Assembly: GCA_964517685.1 (NCBI GenBank) | Contig: CAZFCF010000001.1 | Coordinates: forward strand, 345,458-409,457 | Length of the DNA: 64,000 nucleotides | Origin: an uncultured Gammaproteobacteria bacterium | Lineage (GTDB): Bacteria > Cyanobacteriota > Vampirovibrionia > LMEP-6097 | Reading direction: 5' to 3' | Shown: positions 12,305 through 51,222 of the stretch, in pieces | Layout of the letters: each line of letters starts with the position of its first letter | Position numbering within the stretch: the stretch's first letter is position 1 | Translations under genes and position numbers: made by a program | The notes under the pieces: model-generated | Told to the model about the DNA's origin: nothing | What the model saw: only the letters and a program-made list of their open reading frames with translations | Databases searched by the model: none

Positions 12305-12520
12305 CATTAAGCCTTATTAAGCGTAATAATTGATATGAATACGAGATGAGGCAAATGAAGCTTGGTTAGCAAATCAGCTGGGCGCGAAGTTTAAGGAATA
12401 TAAAGTTTTTTAATAATTTTTTTTATTCGCGAAGCGTGTTTCAAGCCCAGCTCGATTTGCTCCAAGCGTAATGAAGTTGAATCCGTATGAAATATCACAT
12501 TACGCTATAAGGCTTAATAA
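12305..12520. repeat. Nested palindromic element: outer inverted repeats plus an inner GC-rich palindrome, between the leuS start and the ABC-permease gene end.
   Basis: Outer arms cattaagccttattaagcgtaataa (12305-12329) and cattacgctataaggcttaataa (12497-12520, inverted). Inner arms gcttggttagcaaatcagctgggcgcgaag (12357-12389) and cgcgaagcgtgtttcaagcccagctcgatttgctccaagc (12428-12467). Confidence 0.6.
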
Positions 12521-16888: not shown

Positions 16889-18208
16889 TTAGTACTCAGG
16901 GAACCTGTCGTCTCCAGTATCATCGTCGTCGTCAGGGTTTTCGTTATATTCTTCAACATCTTCATCGTCTTCGAAGTCTTCGTCTTCTTCCTCTTCGACT
17001 TCTTCTTCATCTAGATCTTCAACATCATCTTCAAGGTCATCATCTTCTTCCTCAAGATCATCAGAATCATCATCTAGATCTTCATCAGGATCATCTAAAT
17101 CATCATCACCCAGCATAAGTTCTGCTTCTTGATCACTAAAATCGTTAGCACCTAATTCTTTACTATCTTGGCTTTCTAGTTCTAAAATAGACATGGTTTC
17201 ATCCTCTAAATCGATATTGTCAATAATATTATTATCCACATTTTCGCCATGTTGCAACAGGTAATCTTCTAAACTTAAATTTTCGAAATCAAGGTCATCT
17301 AATGGGTCAATTTTGACTTCTATTAAGCCTTCTAGAAGCTCGTTTTTAGGCTCAATCATTGGGTCTTTTAAGGGTTTTATCTCATAACCTAAATAACGTC
17401 CTAAGACCTCTTTTAATACTTTTATTTGACCACTGAAAGATGCGTCAAGACGACCACCTTGAGTATTTACAATACAAGAGCCTTGATCGATACTTTCATC
17501 TTTTTGAAAAACTAATTTTATGGAAGGATCGAGCACTTTTAACAAGGCTTTTTCCAGGAAAGCAACTTTATCAATATCCTTTGGATGTAAATAAATTTGC
17601 ATAATACCTTTGGCGGTAACAACTTTAGAAATAGCTCTTTCTACTTGAGTTTGCAAGACTTCATCATTAGTTTCAACTTCATATCCAAGGATTTGATTAA
17701 CTAAATCAAAAGCAATGGACATAATTTCTTTTTTGGATTCTTCAATTACATTTTTCTTAGCATGATGAAAAGTTGCGAGATAATTCATTAGCTCAGCAAT
17801 GATCTCTGAAGCTTTAGACATTCCCTCTTCAAAGGATTGTTTAAGTTCTTGTTCTTTTAAAATTACAATTTGATTTCTTTCATTTTCAAGTAATTTTTTA
17901 GTATCATAAATTTCAATCTCAGCAGTTTTTTTATAGGCATTAGCCTCCTCAACAATAGTTGCAGCCTCAGTTTGAGCCTCTTGGATCATTTGCTGTATTT
18001 CTTCTTCAGCATGAGATTTTTTAACAGCAATCTCCCTATTGAATTCCTCTAATAATGCTTCAGATTTTTTTTGTACTAAAGATTGAGCTTGATTCTCAAT
18101 TTCTTGAGTAATAGGATTATTGAAATTAAAACCAGAGTTAGAAATAGCAGTAGCTTTAGTAACAGGTACTACAATCTCCTTTACTGTTTTTTTCTTCTTT
18201 ATTAACAT
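16889..18208 (-). CDS. fliH: Flagellar assembly protein FliH (SctL family) with a ~170-aa poly-acidic C-terminal tail.
   Basis: N-terminal Glu/Ala/Gln-rich coiled coil. C-domain GSCIVNTQGGRLDASFSGQIKVLKEVL matches the FliH/YscL C-terminal block. Residues ~270-439 are >60% Asp/Glu. Confidence 0.6.
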   Translation of the reverse strand: MLIKKKKTVKEIVVPVTKATAISNSGFNFNNPITQEIENQAQSLVQKKSEALLEEFNREIAVKKSHAEEEIQQMIQEAQTEAATIVEEANAYKKTAEIEIYDTKKLLENERNQIVILKEQELKQSFEEGMSKASEIIAELMNYLATFHHAKKNVIEESKKEIMSIAFDLVNQILGYEVETNDEVLQTQVERAISKVVTAKGIMQIYLHPKDIDKVAFLEKALLKVLDPSIKLVFQKDESIDQGSCIVNTQGGRLDASFSGQIKVLKEVLGRYLGYEIKPLKDPMIEPKNELLEGLIEVKIDPLDDLDFENLSLEDYLLQHGENVDNNIIDNIDLEDETMSILELESQDSKELGANDFSDQEAELMLGDDDLDDPDEDLDDDSDDLEEEDDDLEDDVEDLDEEEVEEEEDEDFEDDEDVEEYNENPDDDDDTGDDRFPEY

Positions 18209-23790: not shown

Positions 23791-23920
23791 CGCCGTCATT
23801 GCGTCAACTTAGGCTCAAATGCCGTCATCGCGAAGCCTCGAAGAGGCTGTGGCGATCCAGTCTACCAACTATTCCAATTGACTGGATCCCCAGCTTGCTA
23901 CGCAAGCCGAGGATGACGCC
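23791..23920. repeat. RPE-like GC-rich palindromic element, intergenic.
   Basis: cgccgtcattgcg...caaatgccgtcatcgcgaagcctcgaagaggctgtggcgatccagtctacca...gactggatcccc...cgcaagccgaggatgacgc. Confidence 0.8.
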
Positions 23921-25198: not shown

Positions 25199-26047
25199 AT
25201 GCTTCCAAAAGCAATAATCACCGGTGGTACAGGTTATATAGGTTCTAACTTACTAGAGAATTTAACAGAATTTGATATTACTGTTTGTGATAGAACTCTC
25301 AAAAGAGAGAATTTATCCAAGCCTGAATTATACAAATATATTCAAATTGATTTATGCCAAGAGTTCAAATCAAAAGAATTTGAGCAAGCTATTCTTGATT
25401 CACAAATAATTATTCATAGTAGTTTTTTAGGAAATTTTGCCAATGAAAAAAATTTTATTGACTATGTGGCAAAAAGAAATCCACAAATTAAATTTGTTTA
25501 TTTATCCAGCGCTGCAGTTTATGGTGATCTTGAAGCAGAGTATAAAGAAAATTCTCACGCTAGTTTTTCAGAAGGGTCTATCTGTAAACCAATCAATGAC
25601 TACGGTAGAACCAAGCTAGTTTGCGAAGATTTAGTAAAAAATACTTTTGCTAATTATCTCATTATACGAATTGCTAATCCCTTTGGCAAAGAAGTTTCTA
25701 ATAAAGGTATGTATAAACTTTTTAAAACTAAACTGGAAGCAGGTGAGCGTAAATTAGATCTCAATGCAGATTTTCCCGGACAAATTATCAGAGATTTTAT
25801 TTATATAGATGAGCTTTGCAAACAAGTTAGCAACTTGATTACTAACCAACAGACAGGTGTATTTAACATTAGTTCAGGCTCTGGTAGAACACTGGAAGAT
25901 TTAATTCAAGAACTTGCGCAAAGTTTAAATATCAATTACCAAGATATAGAACTTAATTATGCTGATCATAAAGTAGATGAAATTAAAGTATCTATATTGG
26001 GGTCGTACTTCAACAAGCAACAAAAATCAAATAAGCTTCTAGAATAA
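25199..26047 (+). CDS. NAD-dependent epimerase/dehydratase (SDR family).
   Basis: Rossmann motif ITGGTGYIGSNL near the N-terminus. Confidence 0.65.
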   Translation: MLPKAIITGGTGYIGSNLLENLTEFDITVCDRTLKRENLSKPELYKYIQIDLCQEFKSKEFEQAILDSQIIIHSSFLGNFANEKNFIDYVAKRNPQIKFVYLSSAAVYGDLEAEYKENSHASFSEGSICKPINDYGRTKLVCEDLVKNTFANYLIIRIANPFGKEVSNKGMYKLFKTKLEAGERKLDLNADFPGQIIRDFIYIDELCKQVSNLITNQQTGVFNISSGSGRTLEDLIQELAQSLNINYQDIELNYADHKVDEIKVSILGSYFNKQQKSNKLLE

Positions 26048-26097
26048 AGTTAGAAGCGAAATTATATTAAATTTGTTGCTTGTTGAAGTACGACCCC
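25999..26097. repeat. Perfect 26-bp inverted repeat (ggggtcgtacttcaacaagcaacaaa and its complement) separated by 47 bp; a hairpin between convergent genes.
   Basis: Arm 1 at 25999-26024 lies inside the 3' end of the epimerase CDS. Arm 2 at 26072-26097 is immediately downstream of the convergent IMPDH-family gene. Confidence 0.7.
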
Positions 26098-26098
26098 G

Positions 26099-27202
26099 TT
26101 AGAAAGCCTTATGTGGCTTACCTTCCAGGTAACTACTGTAAGTAATTTTCACAAACTTAGCTTTCTCTTGAAGTTCTTTTATATTACGGGCGCCACTATA
26201 GCTAAGACCACTTTTCAGTCCTTTGGTCATACGCGGAAGTATATGTCTAACACTACCTTTATATCTAACAGTAAGTGCCACGCCTTCTTCATTGATGTTC
26301 TCAATTCCAAAATCACTTTGTGCCATAGCTGATGCCATGCCTCTATAACTTTTGGTCATCTCTTCATTTTCATTACGCCAAACTTTTCCTGGAGTTTCTT
26401 TACAACCAGAGAACACTGAACCCATCATTACTGCATCAGCGCCAGCAGCAAGTGCTTTAGTAATATCGCCATAGACTTTGATACCACCATCAGCAATGAT
26501 AAAAATTTCTTTGCCGGGATTTGCTTTTAAGAAATCATCCTTAGCTTGCTTTGCTGCAATTACAGCAGAAAGCTGCGGGTAACCAGCTCCTGTTTTAACT
26601 CTGGTAGTACAGACAGAACCCGGTCCTATTCCGACTTTGATACAATCTGTGCCCCACTCAAAAAGTGCTTTAGCAGCTTCATAAGTTGCAACATTACCAG
26701 CAATGATTCCAATTTTACTGCCGTAAGTAGTTCTAAGATATTGAATTTTTTTCTTCACTAAAGCATGATGACCATGAGCAACATCTATACAAAAATGTTT
26801 AATGCCTACTTTAAAAGCTGCTTCAACTCTCTCTTGATCATGCACTCCGATTGAAACCACTAAGGGCTTCTCAGCTTCATTTTCTTCTTTAAAAAGTTCT
26901 CTATATTTATTGATCTCTTCAAGCAATTCTTCAATTGACATATAACGATGTAAGAAACCAGTGGCACCGTGTTTAGCCATAGTGAAAGCCATTTGATGCT
27001 CAGTAACTGTATCCATATTTGCAGAGATATAAGGAATCTCTAAAGGGAAATCACTAAGAATTTTTGTAGTAACTTTAACTTCCTCTCTATGCTCAACATC
27101 TGAGTATTGGGGGATGAGAAGCACGTCATCAAAAGTTAGGCCCTCTTCAAATTTAAAATTAAGATTCATAGTATTTTGTAAATAAGCAAACCAAATTATC
27201 AT
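26099..27202 (-). CDS. IMP dehydrogenase / GMP reductase family oxidoreductase without a CBS insert.
   Basis: LTFDDVLLIPQYS at the N-terminus and the catalytic loop GIGPGSVCTTRVKTGAGYPQLSAV. Confidence 0.75.
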   Translation of the reverse strand: MIIWFAYLQNTMNLNFKFEEGLTFDDVLLIPQYSDVEHREEVKVTTKILSDFPLEIPYISANMDTVTEHQMAFTMAKHGATGFLHRYMSIEELLEEINKYRELFKEENEAEKPLVVSIGVHDQERVEAAFKVGIKHFCIDVAHGHHALVKKKIQYLRTTYGSKIGIIAGNVATYEAAKALFEWGTDCIKVGIGPGSVCTTRVKTGAGYPQLSAVIAAKQAKDDFLKANPGKEIFIIADGGIKVYGDITKALAAGADAVMMGSVFSGCKETPGKVWRNENEEMTKSYRGMASAMAQSDFGIENINEEGVALTVRYKGSVRHILPRMTKGLKSGLSYSGARNIKELQEKAKFVKITYSSYLEGKPHKAF

Positions 27203-27283
27203 AGCCCGCGGCTATCCTTATAGTTATAAATTTCTATAAGGTTTAATAGAGATCTTGCAAAACTGTTTTCACACCGTCTTTCT

Positions 27284-29506
27284 TTGTGTATTATAAAGAG
27301 GGACAAAAAACAACCAGTAAATACGATTATGAAATTTATAGACTTTAAAAATATATGGGTAAGGCTCGCAATTATAGTAATTATTGCGGCAATCACTTGG
27401 TCAAGTAGTATCACCAATGAATTCGTTGGTTACGATGACATCAAACTAATAATTCGTAACGAAAGAGTACAGAAAGATCTTGCTTATACTCTGAATTTTT
27501 ATTGGAATATAGTTTCAGATAGTCATAACGTAGCTTGGACAAATTACCCAACAGTAATTTATAGACCTCTAGAGTGGTTTGGTTCAGCAGTAGGTTACAA
27601 AATCTGGGGACCTAGATCTTGGGCATACCATTTATTTGTAAATTTTAGTTTCCACATTCTCAATTCAATATTACTGTTCTTTATTATTTCAAAGATATTT
27701 TATACACCGATCAAAGGCACTGAAGATCCAGCAATAGAGATTGTTTCAAGTCCAAAGGCTTTGACCAAAACTAAAGGTAAAAAAAGTAAAAGCTCTACCA
27801 AAACCTTTACTCAAAATACAAATAAATTAGAGAACTTACATAGAGTTTCTTGGTGGTTACCTTTTGTAATTATTCTACTTTGGGTAATACATCCTCTACA
27901 TAATGAGGCAGTAAATATGCTGACTTCTGGTGTTGGCTTCTTGTCAGCAACTCTATTCTGCCTGACCGGTTTTACTATTTTTCTCTATGTACAAGACCTT
28001 CATAAATTAAAGAATATTGGACTTTTAGTACTCGCAAGTGCTCTCATGTTTATTGGCTATCATGGTTCAGAAATGACTGTCATTGCCCCTTGGGTTTTAG
28101 TAGTAGTATTTGCTCGCTCGATCTTGGGCAGGGACATCAAAAGCTATAAGCATGAGCTTTTCAAGATTATTTTGGCATTTGCTTCATCTATTAGCTATCT
28201 TTCACATAGATCTTTTATTGTATCTGAAGATAAAGAATGGATGGCAGGTGGACTCAATAATTTCTTTGAAAGACTATTTGTAGTTGCACCAGAAATTTTA
28301 TTTCATTACGTTAAATTATTTTTCTTTCCTATCAAACTCACTGTAGATCAGCATCACAATGTAGTTTTAGAAAATGCTTACACACCTTACCATTTACTAT
28401 GCTTTGCAGTTGCTTTAGCTTTTGTTCTTGGCTTTTTTTATTTTATGTTTTTAAAAGAACCAGATTATGATTTGCACAATAAATTAATTGCTGGATCTAT
28501 CTTCTTTACTGGCTTTAGCATTGCAATTTCTCTGAACATTATTCCTCTCTATGTACTTGCAAGAGACAGATATACTTACTTTTTTTGTTTAGGTATGTAT
28601 TGTGTGATTTTTCTTATTGCTGATAAATATTGGTTTAGCAAAGATTCAATTAAAGAAAAATTATTTAACAACATAAATAATCTAAGAACTATTTTGATTA
28701 CAATACTTTGTATTTTAGTAGTTGCTTACGGAACTAGATCTTTTATAAAATCATTTGATTGGCGCAATGGTGAAGCTTTCTGGAGCTCTACGATTGACTC
28801 TGTAAGTGATCTTGGCAGTAAACAAAATTGGCGCTATAGATTATTGCAATATTATCAAGATCCAGGTACTACTACTTTTGTAGCAAATCAATTTATTAAA
28901 GAGAAAGCTCAAAAAGATTTCAATGAGTTTCCTTTTATTTACAACTTACTCAATAATCAAACTATTAATTTTTACCTCAAGGAGGCTGCAAACCCAGATC
29001 ATTATCTACTTAATAAATATTCTTACATTGGTAATAAAGCAATTGCTTCTGCATTATTCTTTAATGCAACTGAAGCTTTGACTACATCACAGTTTGACCT
29101 TGCAATGAATTTATTCAAAGCATCTCATTTATACTATCCTGAGCATTTCCAAACTAACTTGCAAATGCTTATTCATACTTATGGTCAGGATGAGAAATTT
29201 ACAAACTATCTATTAAGTAAAATGGAAAAGGATGCCTATAGTAATTCATTCTTAGCTAAAGGATTAATGGATGGACTGTTCTATATTAAACATCCTCGAA
29301 CTTACCAATATGCAAGGCTCTATGCACAACGCTTTCCAAACACACAAGTATTCAATGTCTATCTTTTCCATGCATCCTTAATGGTAAAAGATTATCCAAC
29401 AGCTTATGCTGCGGCAAAAGAAGTCACGAAGAAATACGTTGAACAAGATACTTTTAGTGACTTTATGAGACAGTATGAAGCGGCAAATGGGATTTCTAAG
29501 CCTTAA
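27284..29506 (+). CDS. Polytopic membrane protein with a C-terminal TPR-like region (PMT/ArnT-like glycosyltransferase fold plus TPR, TMTC-like).
   Basis: ~10 predicted TM helices in the N-terminal 450 aa, then a soluble helical-repeat C-terminus. The start may be the internal MKFIDFKN at ~27329. Confidence 0.45.
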   Translation: MCIIKRDKKQPVNTIMKFIDFKNIWVRLAIIVIIAAITWSSSITNEFVGYDDIKLIIRNERVQKDLAYTLNFYWNIVSDSHNVAWTNYPTVIYRPLEWFGSAVGYKIWGPRSWAYHLFVNFSFHILNSILLFFIISKIFYTPIKGTEDPAIEIVSSPKALTKTKGKKSKSSTKTFTQNTNKLENLHRVSWWLPFVIILLWVIHPLHNEAVNMLTSGVGFLSATLFCLTGFTIFLYVQDLHKLKNIGLLVLASALMFIGYHGSEMTVIAPWVLVVVFARSILGRDIKSYKHELFKIILAFASSISYLSHRSFIVSEDKEWMAGGLNNFFERLFVVAPEILFHYVKLFFFPIKLTVDQHHNVVLENAYTPYHLLCFAVALAFVLGFFYFMFLKEPDYDLHNKLIAGSIFFTGFSIAISLNIIPLYVLARDRYTYFFCLGMYCVIFLIADKYWFSKDSIKEKLFNNINNLRTILITILCILVVAYGTRSFIKSFDWRNGEAFWSSTIDSVSDLGSKQNWRYRLLQYYQDPGTTTFVANQFIKEKAQKDFNEFPFIYNLLNNQTINFYLKEAANPDHYLLNKYSYIGNKAIASALFFNATEALTTSQFDLAMNLFKASHLYYPEHFQTNLQMLIHTYGQDEKFTNYLLSKMEKDAYSNSFLAKGLMDGLFYIKHPRTYQYARLYAQRFPNTQVFNVYLFHASLMVKDYPTAYAAAKEVTKKYVEQDTFSDFMRQYEAANGISKP

Positions 29507-29567
29507 GGATCCAGAACTACTCAAAAGATATTGATATTTCACGAATCGATGAGTTATTATCTTCCAC

Positions 29568-30380
29568 ATGGCAACAAAAAACGCAGTAAATAACACAGGA
29601 ATAACTCCTTTAATAAATGTTATAGAGCAAGCTGCTAAAGAAGCTCATTCTAATCCTGTGGATTCGACTATTACTGATCCTAGTTCTTCTACTTCTGCTC
29701 CTTTTAATCAACTTTTTACCAAGAGTATTTCTATGGCTAATGAACTTCTTTCCTCTCCTTTCTCAAACGAGAGTAACATGACTGTAACAGAAAATATTGT
29801 TAATGGAATTACGGCACTTGGTTATAAAGCTGCGGGACAAATTTCTTCAGTACTAAACAATGTTAGCCTCACACTTGGAAACACAATAAGAAAAAAACTG
29901 CAAAACGAAGCAAGAGAAACTTTAATCACAACTCTTAACGATCCTAGTGTGCAAATTGACTGTAAACCAATATACAAGAAGGGTTCAATTCCAGTAAGTA
30001 AATTCTTTGGATATCCAATACAGAGAGTTCCCACAACTCTTACTCTTAAGACTCAAGATCAAAAAATGCGCACTTATACAATATGGCTTGAAATTGAAAA
30101 TCCAGAAACAGAAGGTATAATTAGTAATTGGTCAAACATAGAAAATATTCAACTATTAAAAGTAGAACAAGATTTGATTACGGATTCTTCTGGTTTAAAT
30201 GGAAATAACCTTAAACTTGAGATAGGGGTAGTTCCACCATCTCCACCGCCGCCGCCGCCAAAACCTGGCGAACGAACTCAATTATACTATCCAGACCCTT
30301 TTGATCAAGAACTTTTAGATTGCCTCAACAAAAAAGATATTTTGAATAAAGCTTGGAAAGCAGCTCTTGGCTATTCTTAA
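29568..30380 (+). CDS. Hypothetical proline-rich protein, 270 aa.
   Basis: Contains VVPPSPPPPPPKPGE. No TM segment. Ser/Thr/Asn-rich N-terminus. Confidence 0.45.
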   Translation: MATKNAVNNTGITPLINVIEQAAKEAHSNPVDSTITDPSSSTSAPFNQLFTKSISMANELLSSPFSNESNMTVTENIVNGITALGYKAAGQISSVLNNVSLTLGNTIRKKLQNEARETLITTLNDPSVQIDCKPIYKKGSIPVSKFFGYPIQRVPTTLTLKTQDQKMRTYTIWLEIENPETEGIISNWSNIENIQLLKVEQDLITDSSGLNGNNLKLEIGVVPPSPPPPPPKPGERTQLYYPDPFDQELLDCLNKKDILNKAWKAALGYS

Positions 30381-30525
30381 TAGCCAAATCGATATAGAAG
30401 AAGGCAAACACATAGAATCTAAGATCTCTCTACAAGGTTTGCTTGCCTCATAAAGAATCCTCATACTTATAAATAGCAGCCGGTCGTATATTGGCTTCTA
30501 GAGCTATAATCTCAGATTTATTTAA

Positions 30526-32004
30526 TTGACATTACGTCGCGATTCAGCTATTATCTCGAGGGTGCAGGTCAGATCACTATTCAAACCTTTTTACTATGCT
30601 CCAGACAGCGAAGCTACAAGTGGAGCTGGGGCAGAACCACCACCAGAAAGTAATTTTAATAAAAAGCTTGCAGCCAAAGTCAAACCTAACCCAAATCTGC
30701 AATTAAAGTTAGCAGTAATATCTTTCCGTCAAAAAACTTCTGCTTTGTATGAAGAAGCATTAGATCCTGACGACCCTGTGGGCACTTTATATAAAAAGAA
30801 TAAAACTAAAGTTGACCTAGAGCAATTAGCAGAAGAAGTAAAAAAACTTATTGAACAAGGTGCAGATCCTAATTTTCAAATCAAAGGAAGATTTTTACTG
30901 GGTTTTCTATGTGAAATTTACGATCACCTAAATTCCATATCTGATTTTGGTCCAGAAGCAAAATCACTTAACGATGTCTTTAAAGAATTAGTTATTAGCT
31001 TAGTAGAATCAGGAGCCAACTTAGCCAATATTGAGTGGAGATGGCGAGATCATGAATCATCCTATAATCCCATATTATCGATATTTAATCATTCCGAGGA
31101 TTTCAATAATTTAGAAAAGCTTCTATTAATTAACTCAACTGCTCAAAGTGTTTTAGATCAAACAACATTACTACATCAAGTCATTAAAATTTACTCACCA
31201 AGGGATAAAACATCTGATTACAACGATAAATTTGCAAAGATAGTTGAGGCAATGATTATGAATGGTGCAGATCCAGATTCAAGGAATGCAGATGGTGATT
31301 CAGCTAAAGATGCGGCTCTTGGACTTGATCACTGCTCCACTGCAATTAAAAAAGCTCTCGGTATACAAGATTGTCTACCTAATCTTTATGAACTTTATCA
31401 GAAAGGTGATTTTGATGATGAGCTCTTGGAAAGAAGTCATCCTGATGATCTTATTACTAATGATGTAAGTAACTCTGTAATTTATTTGATGACTAGTAAA
31501 GGAGATATAGAAAATTTAAAAAAAATTTTAAAGCCAGCTAAAATAAATTTTTCAAATAATCCAGAATTTTGGACTAGGATATTGCGCGAAGCATTGGACA
31601 CGTTACGTCCATCCTCTCGTGGTGAAAATGCAATAGAAGTAATAATGTTTTTTCTAAATAATGGAGTCAAACCAGATTACCTTATATCTAATCGCTTTTT
31701 TACTCTTATAACAGATATAAGGTTATTAGGTAGCATTAGACCATTACCACAAGAATTTTTAGATAAAATTATAGAAACATCTCGCTATTTAAGTGATATT
31801 AACCTTAAAGAACTACGTGAATTTATTGAAAAAAAATATCATTTAAGTAATGATAAAGCTCTTTTGAAAAAATTCCCAAGAGCTACACCTGAGAATATGG
31901 ACGAATTAAAAAGGTTATATAATCAATATATTGTAAATCCAGAGAAGCCTGAGAACTTAACGAACCTCAATATACACCTGCATTTTATTAAAAATAGAGA
32001 TTAA
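30526..32004 (+). CDS. Ankyrin-repeat protein, 492 aa.
   Basis: Several ANK-like units: LIEQGADPNFQIKGRFLLGFLCEI, LVESGANLANIE, MIMNGADPDSRNADGDSAKDAALG, FLNNGVKPDYL. Confidence 0.6.
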   Translation: MTLRRDSAIISRVQVRSLFKPFYYAPDSEATSGAGAEPPPESNFNKKLAAKVKPNPNLQLKLAVISFRQKTSALYEEALDPDDPVGTLYKKNKTKVDLEQLAEEVKKLIEQGADPNFQIKGRFLLGFLCEIYDHLNSISDFGPEAKSLNDVFKELVISLVESGANLANIEWRWRDHESSYNPILSIFNHSEDFNNLEKLLLINSTAQSVLDQTTLLHQVIKIYSPRDKTSDYNDKFAKIVEAMIMNGADPDSRNADGDSAKDAALGLDHCSTAIKKALGIQDCLPNLYELYQKGDFDDELLERSHPDDLITNDVSNSVIYLMTSKGDIENLKKILKPAKINFSNNPEFWTRILREALDTLRPSSRGENAIEVIMFFLNNGVKPDYLISNRFFTLITDIRLLGSIRPLPQEFLDKIIETSRYLSDINLKELREFIEKKYHLSNDKALLKKFPRATPENMDELKRLYNQYIVNPEKPENLTNLNIHLHFIKNRD

Positions 32005-32040
32005 AATTAAACCAGTCAATCAGAAGTTCTTAAGTAGACT

Positions 32041-32106
32041 GGATTGCCACGTCGGACTTCGTCCTCCTCGCAATGACATGGATCCTTACGCTTCGCTCAG
32101 GATGGT
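32041..32106. repeat. RPE-like element, right half, at the junction of the ankyrin-gene insertion.
   Basis: ggattgccacgtcggacttcgtcctcctcgcaatgacatggatccttacgcttcgctcaggatgg. The last 30 nt are identical to the ddl insert at 41133-41163. Confidence 0.7.
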
Positions 32107-32951
32107 AACTGATACTTATAAATAGCCGCCGGTCGTATATTGGCTTCCAGGACTATAATCTCTGACCCATCTTGTTTCATTAAGTCAATAGAAAAAATCT
32201 CAGGCATAATGATTTGGTTAGCCCAAGCGAACTCATCAATCACATTAACTATTTCAGCAATAAATTTCTTTTGAGCATCGCCCCAGTTTTCTTGGATATA
32301 TAAATCACCAAATATATAAAGTGCTTTGGTCTCTTTGGCATCCTTTATATATTCTTGTAAGAGACAATCATCATATTTTAAAATTTTGCTAATTGCTTCA
32401 TTGCCTACATTTAACTCTGTGACTGGGATTACTGCAAAGTCAATTTTTTCAGTTCCATGACGTGGCTTAACTGCGATAGATTGAAATTTAGATAGTTTAT
32501 TTTTTTCCTCATCACTAATAAATTTATGATTAGTATGAATGGTTAAAGTGAAAGGCTGTCTAATTTCATTTGCTGTCATTAAGGCATAAAACAAAAATTT
32601 ATCATCAAAGATTTTAGCTATTTTATTGTAGGGATTAACCTGATAGACTTCATGGTCAAATGCCCATTTGGAGATGGTTTTATGAAGGCTTATTTCTTCG
32701 TCCAAAGGTAGATGCACAGTATAAATATAAAAAGATTTAGGATCTAACTCTAAGAGCTTATTCAAATCATCATAATGACAAGTAAGAACTTCTTTAAAAT
32801 CTGTTTTTTCTTTTATAGCTTTTAGAGAAGATTCGAGTAATTTACCATCAAGACCATGTACTAAATATAGAGATAAATTTTTCTTAGAACCTCTAAATTT
32901 AAGCTCTCTACCCAAATTAAAATCTTCGAATTTATTAGCTAGACTTCTCAT
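32097..32951 (-). CDS. Hypothetical protein with weak ATP-grasp-like features.
   Basis: Weak ATP-grasp resemblance (KPRHGTEKIDFAVI, QEYI, LEANIRPA). Its last ~18 codons are duplicated at 30463-30516. Confidence 0.35.
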   Translation of the reverse strand: MRSLANKFEDFNLGRELKFRGSKKNLSLYLVHGLDGKLLESSLKAIKEKTDFKEVLTCHYDDLNKLLELDPKSFYIYTVHLPLDEEISLHKTISKWAFDHEVYQVNPYNKIAKIFDDKFLFYALMTANEIRQPFTLTIHTNHKFISDEEKNKLSKFQSIAVKPRHGTEKIDFAVIPVTELNVGNEAISKILKYDDCLLQEYIKDAKETKALYIFGDLYIQENWGDAQKKFIAEIVNVIDEFAWANQIIMPEIFSIDLMKQDGSEIIVLEANIRPAAIYKYQLPS

Positions 32952-33442
32952 AAATATGCTCTTGGGTTAATTGCCTTAGAGAAATTTTTACCATCTTCAT
33001 AGAACATAACCCTGATGCCTCTAAAGCCAATTTTAGCCTTGCCTCTATAGTTATTTTCATAAGCAACTAAACCTTTCTGGAAAAAATGACCTTGAACTTT
33101 AGCCTGGTTAACTTCTTTTACATAACTACCTCTTTGACCTAACTCAAACATTTTCAAAGCTCGGTTTTTAACTTCTTCTCTATTTAAATTTGGATTTGCA
33201 TGAGGTTGTGGATAAAGATGTTCCATCTTTACTTTGTCATTGAGGAAGAAAGCTTTAAGACGCCAGCTACTATCTAATGAATAAGTTACATAGCCAGTAA
33301 AGCCTAGCTTAGAAGGGAAGTCCTTAACTTCTACAGGCTGACCATACTGAGCTAGATTTTGCTCATAATTATTATTCAATTTTGCAGAGACTTTATTAAC
33401 ACTAAAGAATATTAATAAAGCTAAAGCTAATTTGTATTGCAT
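32948..33442 (-). CDS. Hypothetical secreted protein.
   Basis: Signal peptide MQYKLALALLIFFSVNKVSA. I start the CDS at internal Met 38 (33442). The longer 33553 start would overlap the divergent kinase gene. Confidence 0.4.
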   Translation of the reverse strand: MQYKLALALLIFFSVNKVSAKLNNNYEQNLAQYGQPVEVKDFPSKLGFTGYVTYSLDSSWRLKAFFLNDKVKMEHLYPQPHANPNLNREEVKNRALKMFELGQRGSYVKEVNQAKVQGHFFQKGLVAYENNYRGKAKIGFRGIRVMFYEDGKNFSKAINPRAYL

Positions 33443-33516
33443 AGAGTTAATTATATAGCAAATGAATGATTGAAGTTTGGAAGCAGTGCCAAAATGATTT
33501 AGAATTACTTTTCTAG

Positions 33517-34773
33517 ATGTCTGATTTGAAAATTGAAAATAGAACATACTCATGGAGCTGGTTTAGAAGCTTAGTTAAAATCATTAAAGATTACGATCAG
33601 GTGAATTTAATTGTAGAAAAAGTCCAAGAGTCGTTTATTGATTATTTAAATTATTATCGTGCAGAAATTTTTATCGTAGAGAATCCTGACAAAGAAGGTA
33701 ATGAAAAAAACTACGTAGATAAACTTGCTAGTTCATCTTTTTTTAGTAGAGAAGTTATAGAAGATATTTTCCTACATAAGAAGCCTTGTAGATTGGATGA
33801 CAAACAAGTTATTTTTCCATTAGAGACAGAGGATAGAATCTTAGGTTTAGTTTACGTTTATAGTAAAGAACAAATTAACCAAGAAGAATTTAATATGCTC
33901 TGGTCTTTTTGTGATCACTTAGCAACTAGAGTAAATGAATTACAAATGCCGACAAATTTAGATCCAGTTTCTAAAACTAAAATCAAAGAGATCTCCAATT
34001 CAATTTTCAATAACCTAAAAAGCTTTCTGGAAGCGTCTTTAGGACGATTAAAAGTACTGGAAGAACAGAATATTCAACTCGTAGAAGTTAACCGCACCAG
34101 AACAGAATTAATCAATAACGTTTCTCATGAATTAAGAACTCCGCTTGTAAGTATTATGGGCTTTTCAAATTTATTACAAAGACATGAAGCTAAGCCTGAA
34201 TTAATCAAAGAAGCCAGTGAACAAATTCAATCAGCTGGAAGCCGTCTCTCAAGGATGATTGATGACTTGATCCAACTCAACCGAGCTAGCACACGTGGCT
34301 GGGATATCAATTCAGAAAAATTAGATATTGGTGAGATTACAAAGTTTGTCATCAACACTCTTGCACCCCTAAACAAAGATCATAATTTTACAGTTAGCTA
34401 TATCAATGAATATCCGCTCATTAAAGCAGATAGAAAACTTTTAAGACAAGTTATAGAGAATCTCTTAATCAATGCCATTAAATATTCACCTTATGGTGGT
34501 GAAATTAATTGCTCAATAAAAATAGACGAAGGAAAAAAAGAATTAATTTTTGCAATTCGTGATAATGGCATAGGCATGACTAGAGAAGAACATGACAGGG
34601 TTTTTGAAAGATTTTATCGTGCGAAGAATCCTCAAACAGAAAATATTCCAGGCTTAGGCTTAGGTTTAAGTATCTGTAAGGATGTTATAGAAGCGCTCGA
34701 TGGTAAAATAAGCTGTGAATCAGAGTTTGGCACCGGTTCAATTTTTACTATTGTTTTTAATTATGGAAATTAA
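33517..34773 (+). CDS. Cytoplasmic sensor histidine kinase (GAF-like N-terminal domain, HisKA, HATPase_c).
   Basis: H-box NVSHELRTPLVSIMGFSNLL, N/G boxes IRDNGIGMTREEHDRVFERFYRA and GLGLGLSICKDV. No TM helix. Confidence 0.8.
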   Translation: MSDLKIENRTYSWSWFRSLVKIIKDYDQVNLIVEKVQESFIDYLNYYRAEIFIVENPDKEGNEKNYVDKLASSSFFSREVIEDIFLHKKPCRLDDKQVIFPLETEDRILGLVYVYSKEQINQEEFNMLWSFCDHLATRVNELQMPTNLDPVSKTKIKEISNSIFNNLKSFLEASLGRLKVLEEQNIQLVEVNRTRTELINNVSHELRTPLVSIMGFSNLLQRHEAKPELIKEASEQIQSAGSRLSRMIDDLIQLNRASTRGWDINSEKLDIGEITKFVINTLAPLNKDHNFTVSYINEYPLIKADRKLLRQVIENLLINAIKYSPYGGEINCSIKIDEGKKELIFAIRDNGIGMTREEHDRVFERFYRAKNPQTENIPGLGLGLSICKDVIEALDGKISCESEFGTGSIFTIVFNYGN

Positions 34774-35086
34774 AGAAATTACAGTTCAAGAACTTAAAGG
34801 CATGCAAGATAGTGGCAAAGACTATGTTCTTATAGACGTGCGTAATCCTGATGAATTTGATTATTGCAACTTGGGTGGCACTTTAATACCAATGTCACAA
34901 ATTGCTGAAAGGCTTACAGAGATTCCTAAAGACAAACTAGTAATCATTCATTGTCATCACGGCGGCAGAAGCCGCAAAGTAGTTCAATGGTTACAAGATG
35001 CTCAGGGATTTGATAACTTACATAATCTCTATGGCGGCATCCATGCGTGGTCCACTGAAATAGACACAAGTGTGCCTATGTATTGA
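34763..35086 (+). CDS. Rhodanese-domain sulfurtransferase.
   Basis: Active-site loop IIHCHHGGRSRK. Start taken as ATG at 34763, overlapping the kinase stop by 11 nt. Confidence 0.7.
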   Translation: MEIKEITVQELKGMQDSGKDYVLIDVRNPDEFDYCNLGGTLIPMSQIAERLTEIPKDKLVIIHCHHGGRSRKVVQWLQDAQGFDNLHNLYGGIHAWSTEIDTSVPMY

Positions 35087-35087
35087 A

Positions 35088-35355
35088 ATGAGTCTTAAAA
35101 GCATAATGTGATCTTCATATAGATTCGACTTCATTCCACTTGGAGCAAATCAAGCTTCTTTCTTCTCATCTCATATTACGATCAATATTACGCTTCTAAG
35201 ACTCATTATCAATATAGTTATCATTTCCAAGAGCCTCTCCGAAAAGCTCCCAGATGCTAGGCTTGCGAGTCCCCGAGGAGCCGGAGTTTACTTAGCGTAA
35301 ATGAGGACGACGAGGGGCGAGCGTAACAACGCAGATGGGACTTTGCGGAAGGCTC
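35088..35355. repeat. Composite palindromic element: an AT-rich hairpin followed by a GC-rich palindrome of a different family, intergenic.
   Basis: atgagtcttaaaagc (35088-35102) pairs with gcttctaagactcat (35192-35206). gagcctctccgaaaagctcccagatgc (35231-) pairs with gcagatgggactttgcggaaggctc (-35355). Confidence 0.55.
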
Positions 35356-36463
35356 AATACTCATTTGACTTAATAACTTTTAACCTGCTCAGCTCTACAT
35401 TGTAATCAATGACCGCGTTAATCGTAGCCAGTATCGGCAAAGCAAAAGCAATACCAATAATGCCTCCAACTTTCGCGCCGATGATCACAGCAAAGATTAT
35501 TGCTAAAGGATGTAGTCCTAAAGCATCACCCATTATTCTTGGAGCGATGAAGTTATCTCTCAGGAATTGTGTGTAGAGTAGATAAATTGCAAAGGCAATA
35601 ATTCCTTTACTCAATCCACTGGTCAAGCAAATGATTACTATACATGGAATAATTGCAGTCCAAGTTCCTATTACAGGAAAGACCTCTAACATCTGAGCAA
35701 AGGCAAACAATACAGCAAAAGGCACTTGCAAAAATAAATAAGTAACCAACATAACTGCAGAAGTCATAGTTGCAATTTGTACTTGTCCTGAGACAAAGGC
35801 ATTTAAACTACAATTTATTTTGACACGAATGGCCTGTAAATGCCTTGCAAGTCTGTCAGAGAATGGGGTTAAGAAGAGATGCCAAGCTCTATCTCCATCA
35901 ATTAACATATAAAAAGTCATTATTAAACTGAGAACTACGTAAAGAATAATGTTCACCGAGCTTGCAATTACCGTCATAAAAGTAGCTCCAGCATCAGCAA
36001 CATTTACTTGAGTTACAAAGCCAATTAAAGAATTTAAAATCTCTTCTTCACGCATATGTGAAAGAGGTAATTCAATTTGATAATTCTTCAGTAAAAATAA
36101 ATTCAAATTCAGCAAGAGCTGATAAATCTCTGTAACCAAGTTAGGCAAAGAGTTTCGTAACACTATAAACTGATCAACAATAGCAGGATAGCCAAAATAT
36201 ATTATGCAAACTAAAATCAAAACTGCAGCTGAGAATATTGATATAACAGCAAGTCCTCGTGATTTTATATGCCTTGCTAAAAAATTCACGGGTCTTGCAA
36301 GCATATAGTTAATTAGAATCGCAACAAAAAAACAAAAAACAATATCTTTAAATTGTTCGCCTATTTTTATTAGGACATAGCCAAGCGCAATCCATAACAA
36401 AACCAAAAGTAATCTATAAACTTGCTGTTTTAGAGAATTTATAGATTTATCATCAGGAATCAC
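35354..36463 (-). CDS. AI-2E family transporter (PerM/YdiK-like membrane protein).
   Basis: 369 aa, ~8 TM helices. Topology and size are typical of the AI-2E/UPF0118 family. Confidence 0.5.
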   Translation of the reverse strand: MIPDDKSINSLKQQVYRLLLVLLWIALGYVLIKIGEQFKDIVFCFFVAILINYMLARPVNFLARHIKSRGLAVISIFSAAVLILVCIIYFGYPAIVDQFIVLRNSLPNLVTEIYQLLLNLNLFLLKNYQIELPLSHMREEEILNSLIGFVTQVNVADAGATFMTVIASSVNIILYVVLSLIMTFYMLIDGDRAWHLFLTPFSDRLARHLQAIRVKINCSLNAFVSGQVQIATMTSAVMLVTYLFLQVPFAVLFAFAQMLEVFPVIGTWTAIIPCIVIICLTSGLSKGIIAFAIYLLYTQFLRDNFIAPRIMGDALGLHPLAIIFAVIIGAKVGGIIGIAFALPILATINAVIDYNVELSRLKVIKSNEY

Positions 36464-40491: not shown

Positions 40492-41499
40492 ATGGACAAA
40501 TCAATCATAGTAATTTGCGGTGGACTTTCAGAAGAAAGAGAAGTTTCATTAAGATCTGGAGCAAATGTTCATAGTGCCTTACAGAGACTAGGTTACGCTA
40601 ATGCTGAGTTATTTGATTTCAAAGATTATAATTCACTTTCTGATCTAGTTGAAAAAAAACGCCAAGGAAAATTTGATCAAGCTTTCTTACTTACTCATGG
40701 TACTTATGGTGAAGATGGTTGTATTCAAGGTTTTATGGAATTACTGGGTGTACCGTATACCGGTTCAAAGGTTGAAACTAGCGCTATTTGCATGAATAAG
40801 ACTCGTACTAAAGAAATTCTTAGTGCGCATAATTTACCAATATTAAAAACTTATTTAGCTAAAGAAGTATATGAAGGTTCGACTGATCTAGATGCCAATA
40901 CGGAAATAATCCTCAAACCTAGTGTCGGCGGTTCTAGTGTCGGCATTACCAAATTCAATTCTCAAGCTGAATTCAAGAATTTTATAGATGCAAATATTCA
41001 AGTTAAAAATGAAATTGAAAAATATTTCATTGAGAAATTTATTCGTGGTACTGAAGTAACTACAAGTATTATTGAAGCAAACTTGGAGATGATCACAGAG
41101 AATAAGAATCATTGTAAGGCTTTGCAAAGAACTGGATCCTTACGCTTCGCTCAGGATGACGGGACTATAGTTTCATTACCTATATTAGAATTACGTCCTA
41201 AAAACGAATTCTACGATTATGAAGCTAAATATACTAAGGGCATGACTGAGTTTGTTTTGCCTGCGGAGATAAGCACAGAACTAGAAGAAGCAATTCATAC
41301 CTATGCCCTGGAAGCCTTTCATCAATTAGATTGTAAGGGTGCAGCTAGAGTTGATTTTATTATCGATGGTAAAACTAATAAGCCTTATATTCTTGAAGTT
41401 AATACTTTACCTGGCATGACTGATACAAGTGATTTACCTGCGCAAGCTAAAGCGGCAGGGATTAGTTACGATGAGCTGGTGAGAATTATTCTTTCTTAG
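40492..41499 (+). CDS. ddl: D-alanine--D-alanine ligase, with a small in-frame GC-rich insertion.
   Basis: ATP-grasp Ddl blocks (IIVICGGLSEEREVSLRSG; EVNTLPGMT). TGSLRFAQDDGTIV is encoded by the GC-rich fragment at 41133-41163. Confidence 0.85.
   Translation: MDKSIIVICGGLSEEREVSLRSGANVHSALQRLGYANAELFDFKDYNSLSDLVEKKRQGKFDQAFLLTHGTYGEDGCIQGFMELLGVPYTGSKVETSAICMNKTRTKEILSAHNLPILKTYLAKEVYEGSTDLDANTEIILKPSVGGSSVGITKFNSQAEFKNFIDANIQVKNEIEKYFIEKFIRGTEVTTSIIEANLEMITENKNHCKALQRTGSLRFAQDDGTIVSLPILELRPKNEFYDYEAKYTKGMTEFVLPAEISTELEEAIHTYALEAFHQLDCKGAARVDFIIDGKTNKPYILEVNTLPGMTDTSDLPAQAKAAGISYDELVRIILS
41133..41163. repeat. Short RPE-like fragment, in frame in ddl.
   Basis: ggatccttacgcttcgctcaggatgacggg. 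Confidence 0.6.
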
Positions 41500-43501: not shown

Positions 43502-43506
43502 TAGCA

Positions 43507-43609
43507 AATGCCGTCATCGCGAGCCAGCGAAGCTGGCGTGGCGATCCAGTCTGCCACAAGCTTTAATCAGTTCTGGATCCCTACGTCGCTTCGCTCCTCA
43601 GGATGACGA
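43507..43609. repeat. RPE-like GC-rich palindromic element abutting the truncated xerD-like gene.
   Basis: aaatgccgtcatcgcgagccagcgaagctggcgtggcgatccagtctgccaca...ctggatccctacgtcgcttcgctcctcaggatgacgac. Confidence 0.8.
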
Positions 43610-43610
43610 C

Positions 43611-44411
43611 TTACAAATTCACAGTCTTCTGCCCAGTAAGGTCTCTGAGCAAAGTCTCATGGGCGCCGTTTTCTTTCATATGCTTGAGAAAACTATTGCG
43701 CAGAATTGACGGAGAAACTCTTTTAGTAAGTCCAGATTTCTTAGCTGCATCTCTAATCAAACGAAAGATTTCGCGCTCTGAAACTCCTTCACCACGGCGA
43801 TTAAGTATAAGCTTAGAGTTAATACCCAGATTATTGTTTTTAATATGCTCTTGAATATAGCTTGCAAGTAGCTGATTGAAGGGGATTATGCGTTCTTTAA
43901 ATTTATTAGATCTTGGAATAGTAATTAATTGTGACTCTAAATCAATATCTGTAATAGTCAGCTTAACTAGTTCACCAACTCTGATTCCAGTAGCATAAAT
44001 TAACTCCAAAACAATTTTACTTTTTAGATCATGCTCTTCATAATCAAGCAAAATTACAATTTCATCTTCAGAAAGAAAAGTACAAGTCTTGTTACGGTAT
44101 TGAGAATCTCTTTGGATTTGCATAAAAGGATCTCTACTAACTAAACCCTTCTCTCTGAGCCAAATCCAAAAACCATGCATTGCCGTTAATTTACGATTGA
44201 CAGCAGCTGTAGATTTACCCTGCTCTTCGATATAAGCTCTAAATTTATTTAGGATCTCAGAATTTAAATTAGTAAGTAGAAAATTTACATCAAGCTTGTT
44301 AACACAAAAATTATAAAAATCCATTAAATCGCGGCGATAAAGTCTAAGAGAATTAAAACTAAAAATCTTATTTTCTTCGATATAATTTATGTATTCTCCT
44401 AAAAGCTCCAT
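43611..44411 (-). pseudogene. XerC/XerD-like tyrosine recombinase that appears C-terminally truncated. The reading frame stops where a GC-rich palindromic element begins.
   Basis: N-terminal LYRRDLMDFYNFC core-binding block. Catalytic ATGIRVGEL (Arg) and ILRNSF (H-x-x-R) are present, but the final GH..TT..Y.H tyrosine block is absent. The stop codon abuts the element at 43507-43609. Confidence 0.5.
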
Positions 44412-51041: not shown

Positions 51042-51185
51042 GATTTAATTACCTTCCGTTTTATCGAATCCTCACTTGATATTAAAAGGATAATGATAGG
51101 GAAATTTTGACAGGTAAACCCTTAATCAGGTATTAACTATTAAGTATCAACTTGGAGTTCTGTCTTCTAAAAAGCTTATGGTAGG

Positions 51186-51222
51186 CTGGATTGCCACGCC
51201 GCTTCGCGGCTCGCAATGACGA
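51186..51222. repeat. RPE-like fragment, right half, intergenic.
   Basis: ctggattgccacgccgcttcgcggctcgcaatgacga. Confidence 0.6.

Follow-up and report, generated by a model that had tools for sequence, protein, structure and literature searches.

The window analysed here, a 64-kb stretch (64,000 nucleotides) of contig CAZFCF010000001.1, contains a direct repeat of 54 nt that duplicates the 3' coding end of a gene from the ATP-grasp family. One copy (the right copy, 32112-32165) lies within this gene and the other (the left copy, 30463-30516) stands apart from it, with a 492-aa open reading frame (ORF) between the two. The evidence tips towards reading the repeat as the recombination scar of a lineage-specific gene gain between two convergent conserved genes, in which the native end of the ATP-grasp gene was displaced.

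The two copies are identical at 49 of 54 positions, with mismatches at 30478, 30499, 30501, 30502, and 30514 and identical stretches of 15 and 20 nt. The pair had been noticed in an earlier sequence-only reading of the window and was borne out by a degenerate-core scan, blastn, local alignment, and further assemblies. A 36-nt core with one degenerate position matched only at 30463-30498 and 32112-32147, and matched in none of 100 shuffled sequences. Within the window, blastn-short aligned the copies at 47 of 51 positions (92%, E 1.7e-13), and local alignment gave 51 of 57 over 30460-30516 and 32109-32165. The sequence-only reading had raised the possibility that the copies belong to a longer dispersed repeat; no third copy was found in the window, an exact scan of Joint Genome Institute (JGI) metagenome contigs with the core gave no match, and, as far as could be tested, the repeat is not a dispersed family. 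Logan assemblies of four separate runs are 100% identical to the window at the repeat locus, those from SRR7369913 and SRR7369912 spanning both copies and those from SRR7369924 and SRR7369911 spanning the right copy only. Because independent assemblies reproduce the locus, two of them across both copies, an assembly artefact is excluded.

Translation confirmed that the right copy is the C-terminus (...SEIIVLEANIRPAAIYKYQLPS and a stop) of the 284-aa product of the minus-strand gene, as had been proposed. In the same frame the left copy reads SEIIALEANIRPAAIYKYEDSL and a stop. Since stop codons sit just upstream in this frame, the left copy is an orphan fragment, and its earlier description as an orphan duplicate of the gene end also stands. 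Sequence comparison suggests that the 284-aa protein is a remote member of the ATP-grasp family. It scored below the cut-off against Pfam ATPgrasp_ST (E 0.0039, 16.9 bits, cut-off 31.4) and NCBIfam TIGR00768 rimK_fam (E 0.0013), and a PDB sequence search gave no match; 12 of 19 homologues matched ATPgrasp_ST (best E 4e-7), and others matched R2K_2, ATP-grasp_3, or RimK. Residues E269, N271, I272, and R273 are invariant across the 19 homologues, and all four fall within the duplicated segment, where E-x-N-I-R is the only C-terminal motif that the family keeps invariant. In the ATP-grasp fold, the metal-binding motif at the C-terminus is E-x-N. The 0-5 residues that follow the IY-x-[YF] position vary freely among homologues. 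Hence the last part that the gene cannot do without is the duplicated 54 nt, and an insertion in the gene end would be viable only with a replacement end.

Relatives of the locus were found by a scan of genome collections and by exact-protein look-ups, and they carry a single copy of the repeat. In L006, a contig of a metagenome-assembled genome (MAG; CAYQSL010000219) whose ATP-grasp protein is 90% identical, the ATP-grasp gene and the orthologue of a 740-aa membrane-protein gene are convergent with a 4-bp tail-to-tail overlap. In L007 and L008, from two Logan samples with 69% identity in the ATP-grasp protein, the same two genes are convergent and 37 bp apart, with synteny over more than 10 kb on each side. 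The left flank of the repeat in these relatives is the 740-aa gene and not the 270-aa ORF that flanks it in the window. In the window, the blastn alignment with L006 breaks at 29493 and 32113 and that with L007 at 29436 and 32109, and the L006 interval that matches the lineage-specific block of ~2.6 kb measures 22 bp. The right breakpoint is the end of the right repeat, within one base. The block has the GC content of its flanks and holds two orphan ORFs, of 270 and 492 aa, with the left repeat between them in mid-block; the repeats therefore do not bound the whole insertion. The sequence-only reading had seen here the footprint of a gene insertion bounded by the repeats: the insertion is upheld by empty sites with a single repeat copy in three contigs from two lineages, and the bounding by repeats is not. 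No match to positions 26000-36000 was found in the plasmid collection by megablast.

Table 1. Features of the repeat locus in the window (coordinates from the first base of the 64-kb stretch).
Feature	Coordinates	Strand	Remarks
740-aa membrane-protein gene, conserved	27284..29506	+	Left anchor; ORF; homologous in L006 (85% nt identity up to 29493) and L007
Lineage-specific block, ~2.6 kb	29507..32111		29494-32112 from blastn breakpoints; absent from relatives
Possible module fragment, 11-14 nt (GTTCTGGATCCTTA)	29504..29517	-	Abuts the 740-aa stop codon; weak; missed by the module HMM
270-aa orphan ORF with proline run	29568..30380	+	Within the extra block
Tail and stop (EDSL, stop) on the orphan copy	30448..30462	-	From translation; looks like a native tail
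Left repeat copy	30463..30516	-	Orphan in-frame remnant of the last 18 conserved ATP-grasp codons; taken to be the original, displaced 3' end
Promoter-like site, TTGACA - 17 nt - TATTAT	30526..30554	+	11 of 12 consensus positions; consensus match only
Orphan helical-repeat gene, degenerate ankyrin-like motifs (492-aa ORF)	30562..32004	+	Mechanical ORF start TTG 30526
RPE-like module a (CTGGATTGCCACG...CTCGCAATGAC)	32037..32078	+	nhmmer E 1.2e-8
RPE-like module b	32079..32108	+	nhmmer match 32079-32106, E 0.0034; same orientation as module a
284-aa remote ATP-grasp family gene	32097..32951	-	Right anchor of the locus
Right repeat copy	32112..32165	-	Encodes residues 263-280; functional 3' end of the ATP-grasp coding sequence

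Because the 90% and 69% relatives alike have the empty site and the duplication is derived, parsimony places the gain in the lineage of the window. It is highly improbable that the ORFs and the duplication are instead ancestral and were deleted in the relatives. The convergent junction is generally variable, since L010 (50% identity) has a gene for an unrelated SLBB protein between the two anchors and further relatives have other neighbours, and such variability would be compatible with loss. However, under loss two clean deletions would have had to occur independently, and one would have had to restore a 4-bp tail-to-tail overlap; the two copies are far more alike than either is to L006, and the 270-aa ORF bears no relation to the SLBB protein. 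A separate observation concerns L017 (Logan, SRR13608730), whose ATP-grasp protein is also 90% identical: its contig ends 43 nt past the ATP-grasp stop (1451-1493), in sequence that is rich in GC and does not resemble the 740-aa gene. A repeat may have broken the assembly there, and the junction may be arranged in still another way in the L017 lineage. L013, a candidate for sharing the context of the window, was rejected, its downstream gene being no SLBB orthologue and its AAA_14 gene 28% identical to that of L009.

Further comparison centred on the tails of the two copies. Beyond the KY codons, which both copies share, the left copy runs on with GAGGATTCTTTAT (EDSL and a stop), and the native tail of L017 is AAAGATTTTTCTT (KDFS and a stop). 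The left-copy tail matches this native tail at 8 of 13 positions, and the current right-copy tail matches it at 4 of 13; the current tail of the ATP-grasp gene (QLPS and a stop) is the sequence of module b, one of two modules resembling Rickettsia palindromic elements (RPE) that are described below. Together with the breakpoint data, the tail similarity suggests, on thin evidence, that the left copy and its EDSL tail are the native gene end and that the arriving unit may be 30517-32165. The copies differ from each other at 4 of 51 shared coding nt and each differs from L006 at 13-14 of 51, which makes the duplication younger than the split from this 90% relative. Three of the four differing codons are synonymous, a pattern to be expected, in this very small sample, if both copies diverged as coding alleles.

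The sequence-only reading had also placed a palindromic element at the junction with the right repeat, and this was confirmed by nhmmer with a hidden Markov model (HMM) built from the window's own copies. The model finds 15 modules of ~40 nt at 8 sites in the 64 kb. Their consensus is CTGGATyGCCACG, a short stem-loop around CTTCG, and then CTCGCrATGAC, with a second form CTGGATCC...AGGATGAC. Module a has relatives at 6577-6611, 11077-11114, and 51181-51198. Module b is identical over 26 of 26 positions to 41133-41158 within the Ddl gene; it ends 3-6 nt from the right repeat and gives the ATP-grasp gene its last four codons and stop. No module was found by the HMM beside the left copy or the 740-aa stop codon, even at E below 50. 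The possible fragment at the latter (Table 1) resembles the module starts at 43570 (one mismatch) and 41129 (two mismatches), and a module-like partial 16-mer at 30535-30550, upstream of the helical-repeat gene, has four mismatches and is not significant.

Modules of this family are read through in frame in genes for ComEC (6495-6615, 41 aa), LeuRS (11076-11115, 14 aa), Ddl (41131-41161, 11 aa, TGSLRFAQDDG), and ValRS (56229-56326, 34 aa). The Ddl orthologue of L007 is without 8 residues at exactly the module point, and mobility of the modules within this clade is clear. L007 also has a 26-nt miniature hairpin GTCATTGCGAGAAGCGTAGTAATGAC (GTCATTGCGAG...AATGAC) that carries both module termini; it follows the ATP-grasp stop at 10861-10886 (from 6793 in L008), between the convergent ATP-grasp and membrane-protein genes. 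The hairpin could represent an element that has collapsed, or else a footprint at this same site, and its position indicates that such elements frequent this site in the clade. Elsewhere in the window, members of the family at 23816-23920, 43505-43610, and 51186-51222 comprise intergenic full inverted pairs (each after CAAATGCC) and a single module. Among distant relatives, members were seen in L009 (4392-4505), L011 (6127-6167), L014 (3168-3236 and 6657-6745), and L015 (5301-5369). Since these relatives have ATP-grasp proteins only 46-53% identical, the module family is old and widespread in the clade.

RPE and other repeats similar to miniature inverted-repeat transposable elements (MITE) or repetitive extragenic palindromic (REP) sequences have been reviewed (PMC10969869). 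Like RPE, the modules are short, dispersed, and palindromic and stand in frame inside essential genes. Unlike RPE, they occur in a host that appears Melainabacteria-like, and their ~40-nt unit is found single, in tandem, or in inverted pairs; the likeness is one of form, with no Rfam family. At the present locus, one module rewrites the C-terminal tail and stop codon of the ATP-grasp gene. A literature search for the module motif returned nothing relevant.

The limits of the repeat bear on what the left copy might do. Leftward, the similarity extends over 22 nt with 12 of 22 matching, which is marginal (empirical p ~0.004), and rightward no significant extension was found. It is most improbable that the left copy has been kept as a functional element, either as an upstream regulatory segment or as an RNA segment with complementarity to the ATP-grasp mRNA's 3' end, through which the inserted gene and its neighbour would be coupled in expression. 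Its position directly upstream of a promoter-like site would suit such a role, as would the contrast between a core ~90% identical and an adjacent 22 nt at <=55%, which would mean uneven decay if the flanks were truly homologous. However, as flanking similarity is marginal or absent, sharp boundaries are the simpler explanation. Moreover, the left copy was found in no second genome, and the junction shows neither an Rfam match nor unusual folding: Rfam returned nothing for the whole window at the gathering threshold and one chance match for 29400-32300 at an E-value threshold, and the module region folds no more stably than shuffled sequences on either strand.

In the favoured reading, the left copy and its EDSL tail would be the original 3' end of the ATP-grasp gene, and a unit of 1649 bp (30517-32165) would have joined into the gene 54 nt before the end of its conserved coding sequence. 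This unit would have comprised the promoter-like site, the helical-repeat gene, the two RPE-like modules, and, as a replacement, another copy of the last 18 conserved codons. With this copy the catalytic-type E-x-N-I-R would stay attached to the gene body, the module would supply a new tail of four codons and a stop, and the old end, now non-coding, would have been pushed 1.6 kb downstream. The source DNA would probably have come from a closely related genome where a palindromic module had already rewritten the tail of the ATP-grasp gene and lay next to it, as did the helical-repeat gene in convergent orientation. Two routes can be envisaged. Homologous pairing in the gene body could have been combined with an illegitimate join at 30516/30517 (homology-facilitated illegitimate recombination, with C-terminal displacement), or a circular intermediate could have entered by a single crossover within the short homology. 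A separate or an earlier event at this locus would have brought in the 270-aa ORF. We infer which copy is original, and likewise the donor and the mechanism of joining. A donor close to the recipient is indicated because the composition of the cargo is native, the differences between copies are mostly synonymous, and modules are frequent after this gene in relatives. DNA uptake is plausible, since the window encodes ComEC (Pfam Competence, E 1.5e-44).

Both routes have precedents. Displaced 3' regions at Rhs, CDI (contact-dependent growth inhibition), and type VI secretion system (T6SS) effector loci have been attributed to homology-facilitated illegitimate recombination (PMC5361080). As at those loci, downstream of an intact gene with a new 3' end come first the cargo and next the former 3' fragment, oriented like the gene; the constant gene body would serve as the homologous anchor, and no element-encoded enzyme is needed. 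In contrast to them, the gene is a housekeeping-type ATP-grasp enzyme rather than a polymorphic toxin, only 18 conserved codons are duplicated, both ends encode nearly the same peptide with no swap of function, and the cargo is a convergent orphan gene instead of an immunity gene, with one displacement and no array. Single crossovers that duplicate lacZ-end fragments of 109-950 bp have been observed experimentally (PMC3240628). A Campbell-type single crossover would likewise duplicate part of a gene end directly around the integrated DNA and leave one gene copy intact; here, however, the homology is only 54-57 bp at ~90% identity, and the circular intermediate is hypothetical.

Several points weigh against this reading. 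The tail comparison spans only 13 nt, and the 22-nt leftward extension, if real, would mean that part of the palindromic module was co-duplicated and would complicate the view of the left copy as native. For a RecA-dependent single crossover, 54 bp of homology is short. No donor or intermediate genome was found in genome collections, protein searches, or JGI contigs; the 270-aa ORF is without any homologue, and the homologues of the helical-repeat gene lie in unrelated contexts. A sliding-window comparison of divergence from L006 along the ATP-grasp gene gave no clear recombination breakpoint.

The arrangement also recalls integrative elements and genomic islands with att sites in gene 3' ends, such as tRNA-targeting islands, which bring a replacement gene end. 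By analogy, the 1.6-kb segment might be a decayed or non-autonomous integrative element that brought such an end, with the repeats as attL and attR over the ATP-grasp 3' end. Direct repeats that contain the 3' end of a target gene, a gene left intact after insertion, and the 15- and 20-nt identical stretches would all fit, and a tyrosine recombinase gene lies 11.5 kb off (43611-44411). This explanation is nonetheless unlikely. The segment has no integrase, its single ORF matches no recombinase family, and a unit of 1.6 kb with no known recurrence at the site is unlike such elements. The recombinase gene is syntenic in L007, which has the empty site, and is therefore probably a housekeeping Xer-type enzyme. 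Homologues of the cargo gene are not found at this site and are without flanking repeats, and no related sequence was found in viral contigs.

The sequence-only reading had instead proposed a target-site-like duplication or a recombination event mediated by the palindromic element. It is quite unlikely that a mobile unit bounded by RPE-like modules inserted the gene and thereby gave rise to a long duplication of the target site or to a rearrangement that the palindromic element drove. The module end 3-6 nt from the right repeat speaks for it, as do the mobility of the modules in the clade (the Ddl insertion missing in L007, and 15 modules in 64 kb) and, by inspection, the weak 16-mer at 30535-30550. 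Target duplications of bacterial transposons and MITE are typically 2-15 bp, however, far below the 54-57 bp seen here. No inverted repeat joins the ends of 30517-32111, the HMM finds no module at the left copy, and no transposase is present, the ORF of the segment having no match to a transposase family in Pfam, NCBIfam, or PHROG scans. The tails of the two copies are of different origin, unlike the prediction for a staggered cut, and the empty site lacks contiguous flanks, the left flank in relatives being the 740-aa gene. The homologues of the cargo gene, moreover, are without flanking duplications. A target-site duplication of the transposase type is unlikely here. The same reading had anticipated further genes flanked by RPE-like half-elements and short duplications; elsewhere in the window, module sites are without flanking duplications. 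It is very unlikely that the RPE-like modules form a gene-capturing, non-autonomous unit that enters the 3' ends of conserved genes with a replacement end and a target duplication of ~54 bp. If this were true, a capture unit would spread orphan effector-like genes in Melainabacteria-like genomes, and the insertions in ComEC, LeuRS, Ddl, and ValRS would be its cargo-less form.

For the 492-aa ORF, GTG 30562 is the likelier start, because the N-termini of its homologues (MR..L..Y..ADG...) align from about there. The promoter-like site lies just downstream of the left copy and upstream of this gene; the region contains 14 such sites, which is not above the shuffled expectation of 11.2 +/- 3.9. 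A word-indexed search of 5.8 billion proteins returned only the ORF itself, and an exhaustive HMMER scan of 1.84 billion representatives returned four others at 39-30% identity. Three of these four are clear family members and come from uncultured-bacterial contigs with unrelated contexts. No direct repeats flank the homologues in other genomes, and no member of the family was found in viral contigs.

The 492-aa product is consistent, weakly, with a helical-repeat protein of degenerate ankyrin-like repeats. Against Pfam Ank (PF00023) it scored E 0.013 (16.2 bits), below the cut-off of 21.1; three of four family members matched Ank (best E 1.8e-4), and the family profile matched designed ankyrins at E 2.2e-5 through a recurring GADPN motif. 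An AlphaFold2 (AF2) model built from a single sequence had a predicted local distance difference test score (pLDDT) of 41 and was replaced by an alignment-based model with a pLDDT of 75, for which the top Foldseek matches were designed ankyrin repeat proteins (DARPins) and AnkB (E 3e-4). As in bacterial ankyrin-repeat proteins, a motif xxVxxLIxxGADPN recurs in the family, and both the profile and Foldseek find designed ankyrins first. The earlier claim of an ankyrin gene and an RPE-like element between the copies thus holds for the ORF and the modules, which are there, and is less secure for the ankyrin assignment, the match being below threshold. A literature search on ankyrin in Caenarcaniphilales returned nothing relevant.

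For the 270-aa ORF, the search of 5.8 billion proteins gave no homologue but itself, and no family was found in Pfam, NCBIfam, or PHROG. A relationship to the SLBB protein of L010 or to the 492-aa ORF was considered and rejected, as it has no similarity to either. Both orphan ORFs have the GC content, GC content at third codon positions (GC3, 0.21), and synonymous-codon usage of the neighbouring genes, and by sequence composition nothing points to a recent distant donor for either. The eukaryote-like origin earlier suggested for the ankyrin protein is not supported: its GC3 and codon usage are native, its four remote homologues are bacterial, and nothing points to a eukaryote.

By sequence similarity the host appears to be Melainabacteria-like or to belong to Caenarcaniphilales, all named ATP-grasp homologues being labelled Caenarcaniphilales, Melainabacteria, or Cyanobacteria. 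L006 is deposited as 'uncultured Gammaproteobacteria bacterium', a label that is probably wrong given these homologues. Other features were observed elsewhere in the window. An inverted repeat of 49 nt (25986-26034 and 26062-26110; 80% complementary, 27-nt loop), not of the RPE-like family, spans the ends of a convergent ORF (25199-26047) and an IMPDH/GMP-reductase-like gene. An inverted pair of 43 nt (12449-12491 and 35114-35156; 86% complementary) has both members intergenic and 22.6 kb apart; no further copy was found within three mismatches, and the pair could represent another dispersed repeat family or else a small RNA. ORF 16889-18208 contains, at 16926-17107, a degenerate periodic repeat of 9-21 nt, whose translation is a low-complexity tract rich in acidic residues (D/E). 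At 34026, in a histidine-kinase gene, three independent Logan contigs (L001-L003) have their start, which suggests a population variant or an assembly-breaking repeat.

The type of scar described here is known, and the locus does not reveal a new kind of system. The locus provides a natural example of how a small AT-rich uncultured bacterium would gain orphan genes at a convergent junction and keep the adjacent conserved enzyme: the incoming DNA would replace the catalytic C-terminus, and the old end would be left as a dated scar. A pattern of displaced 3' ends that is known from polymorphic-toxin loci would thereby be found at an ordinary metabolic-type gene. More notable, as a by-product, are the RPE-like modules that are read through in frame in essential genes of a bacterium outside Rickettsia, and they are open to genome-wide follow-up.

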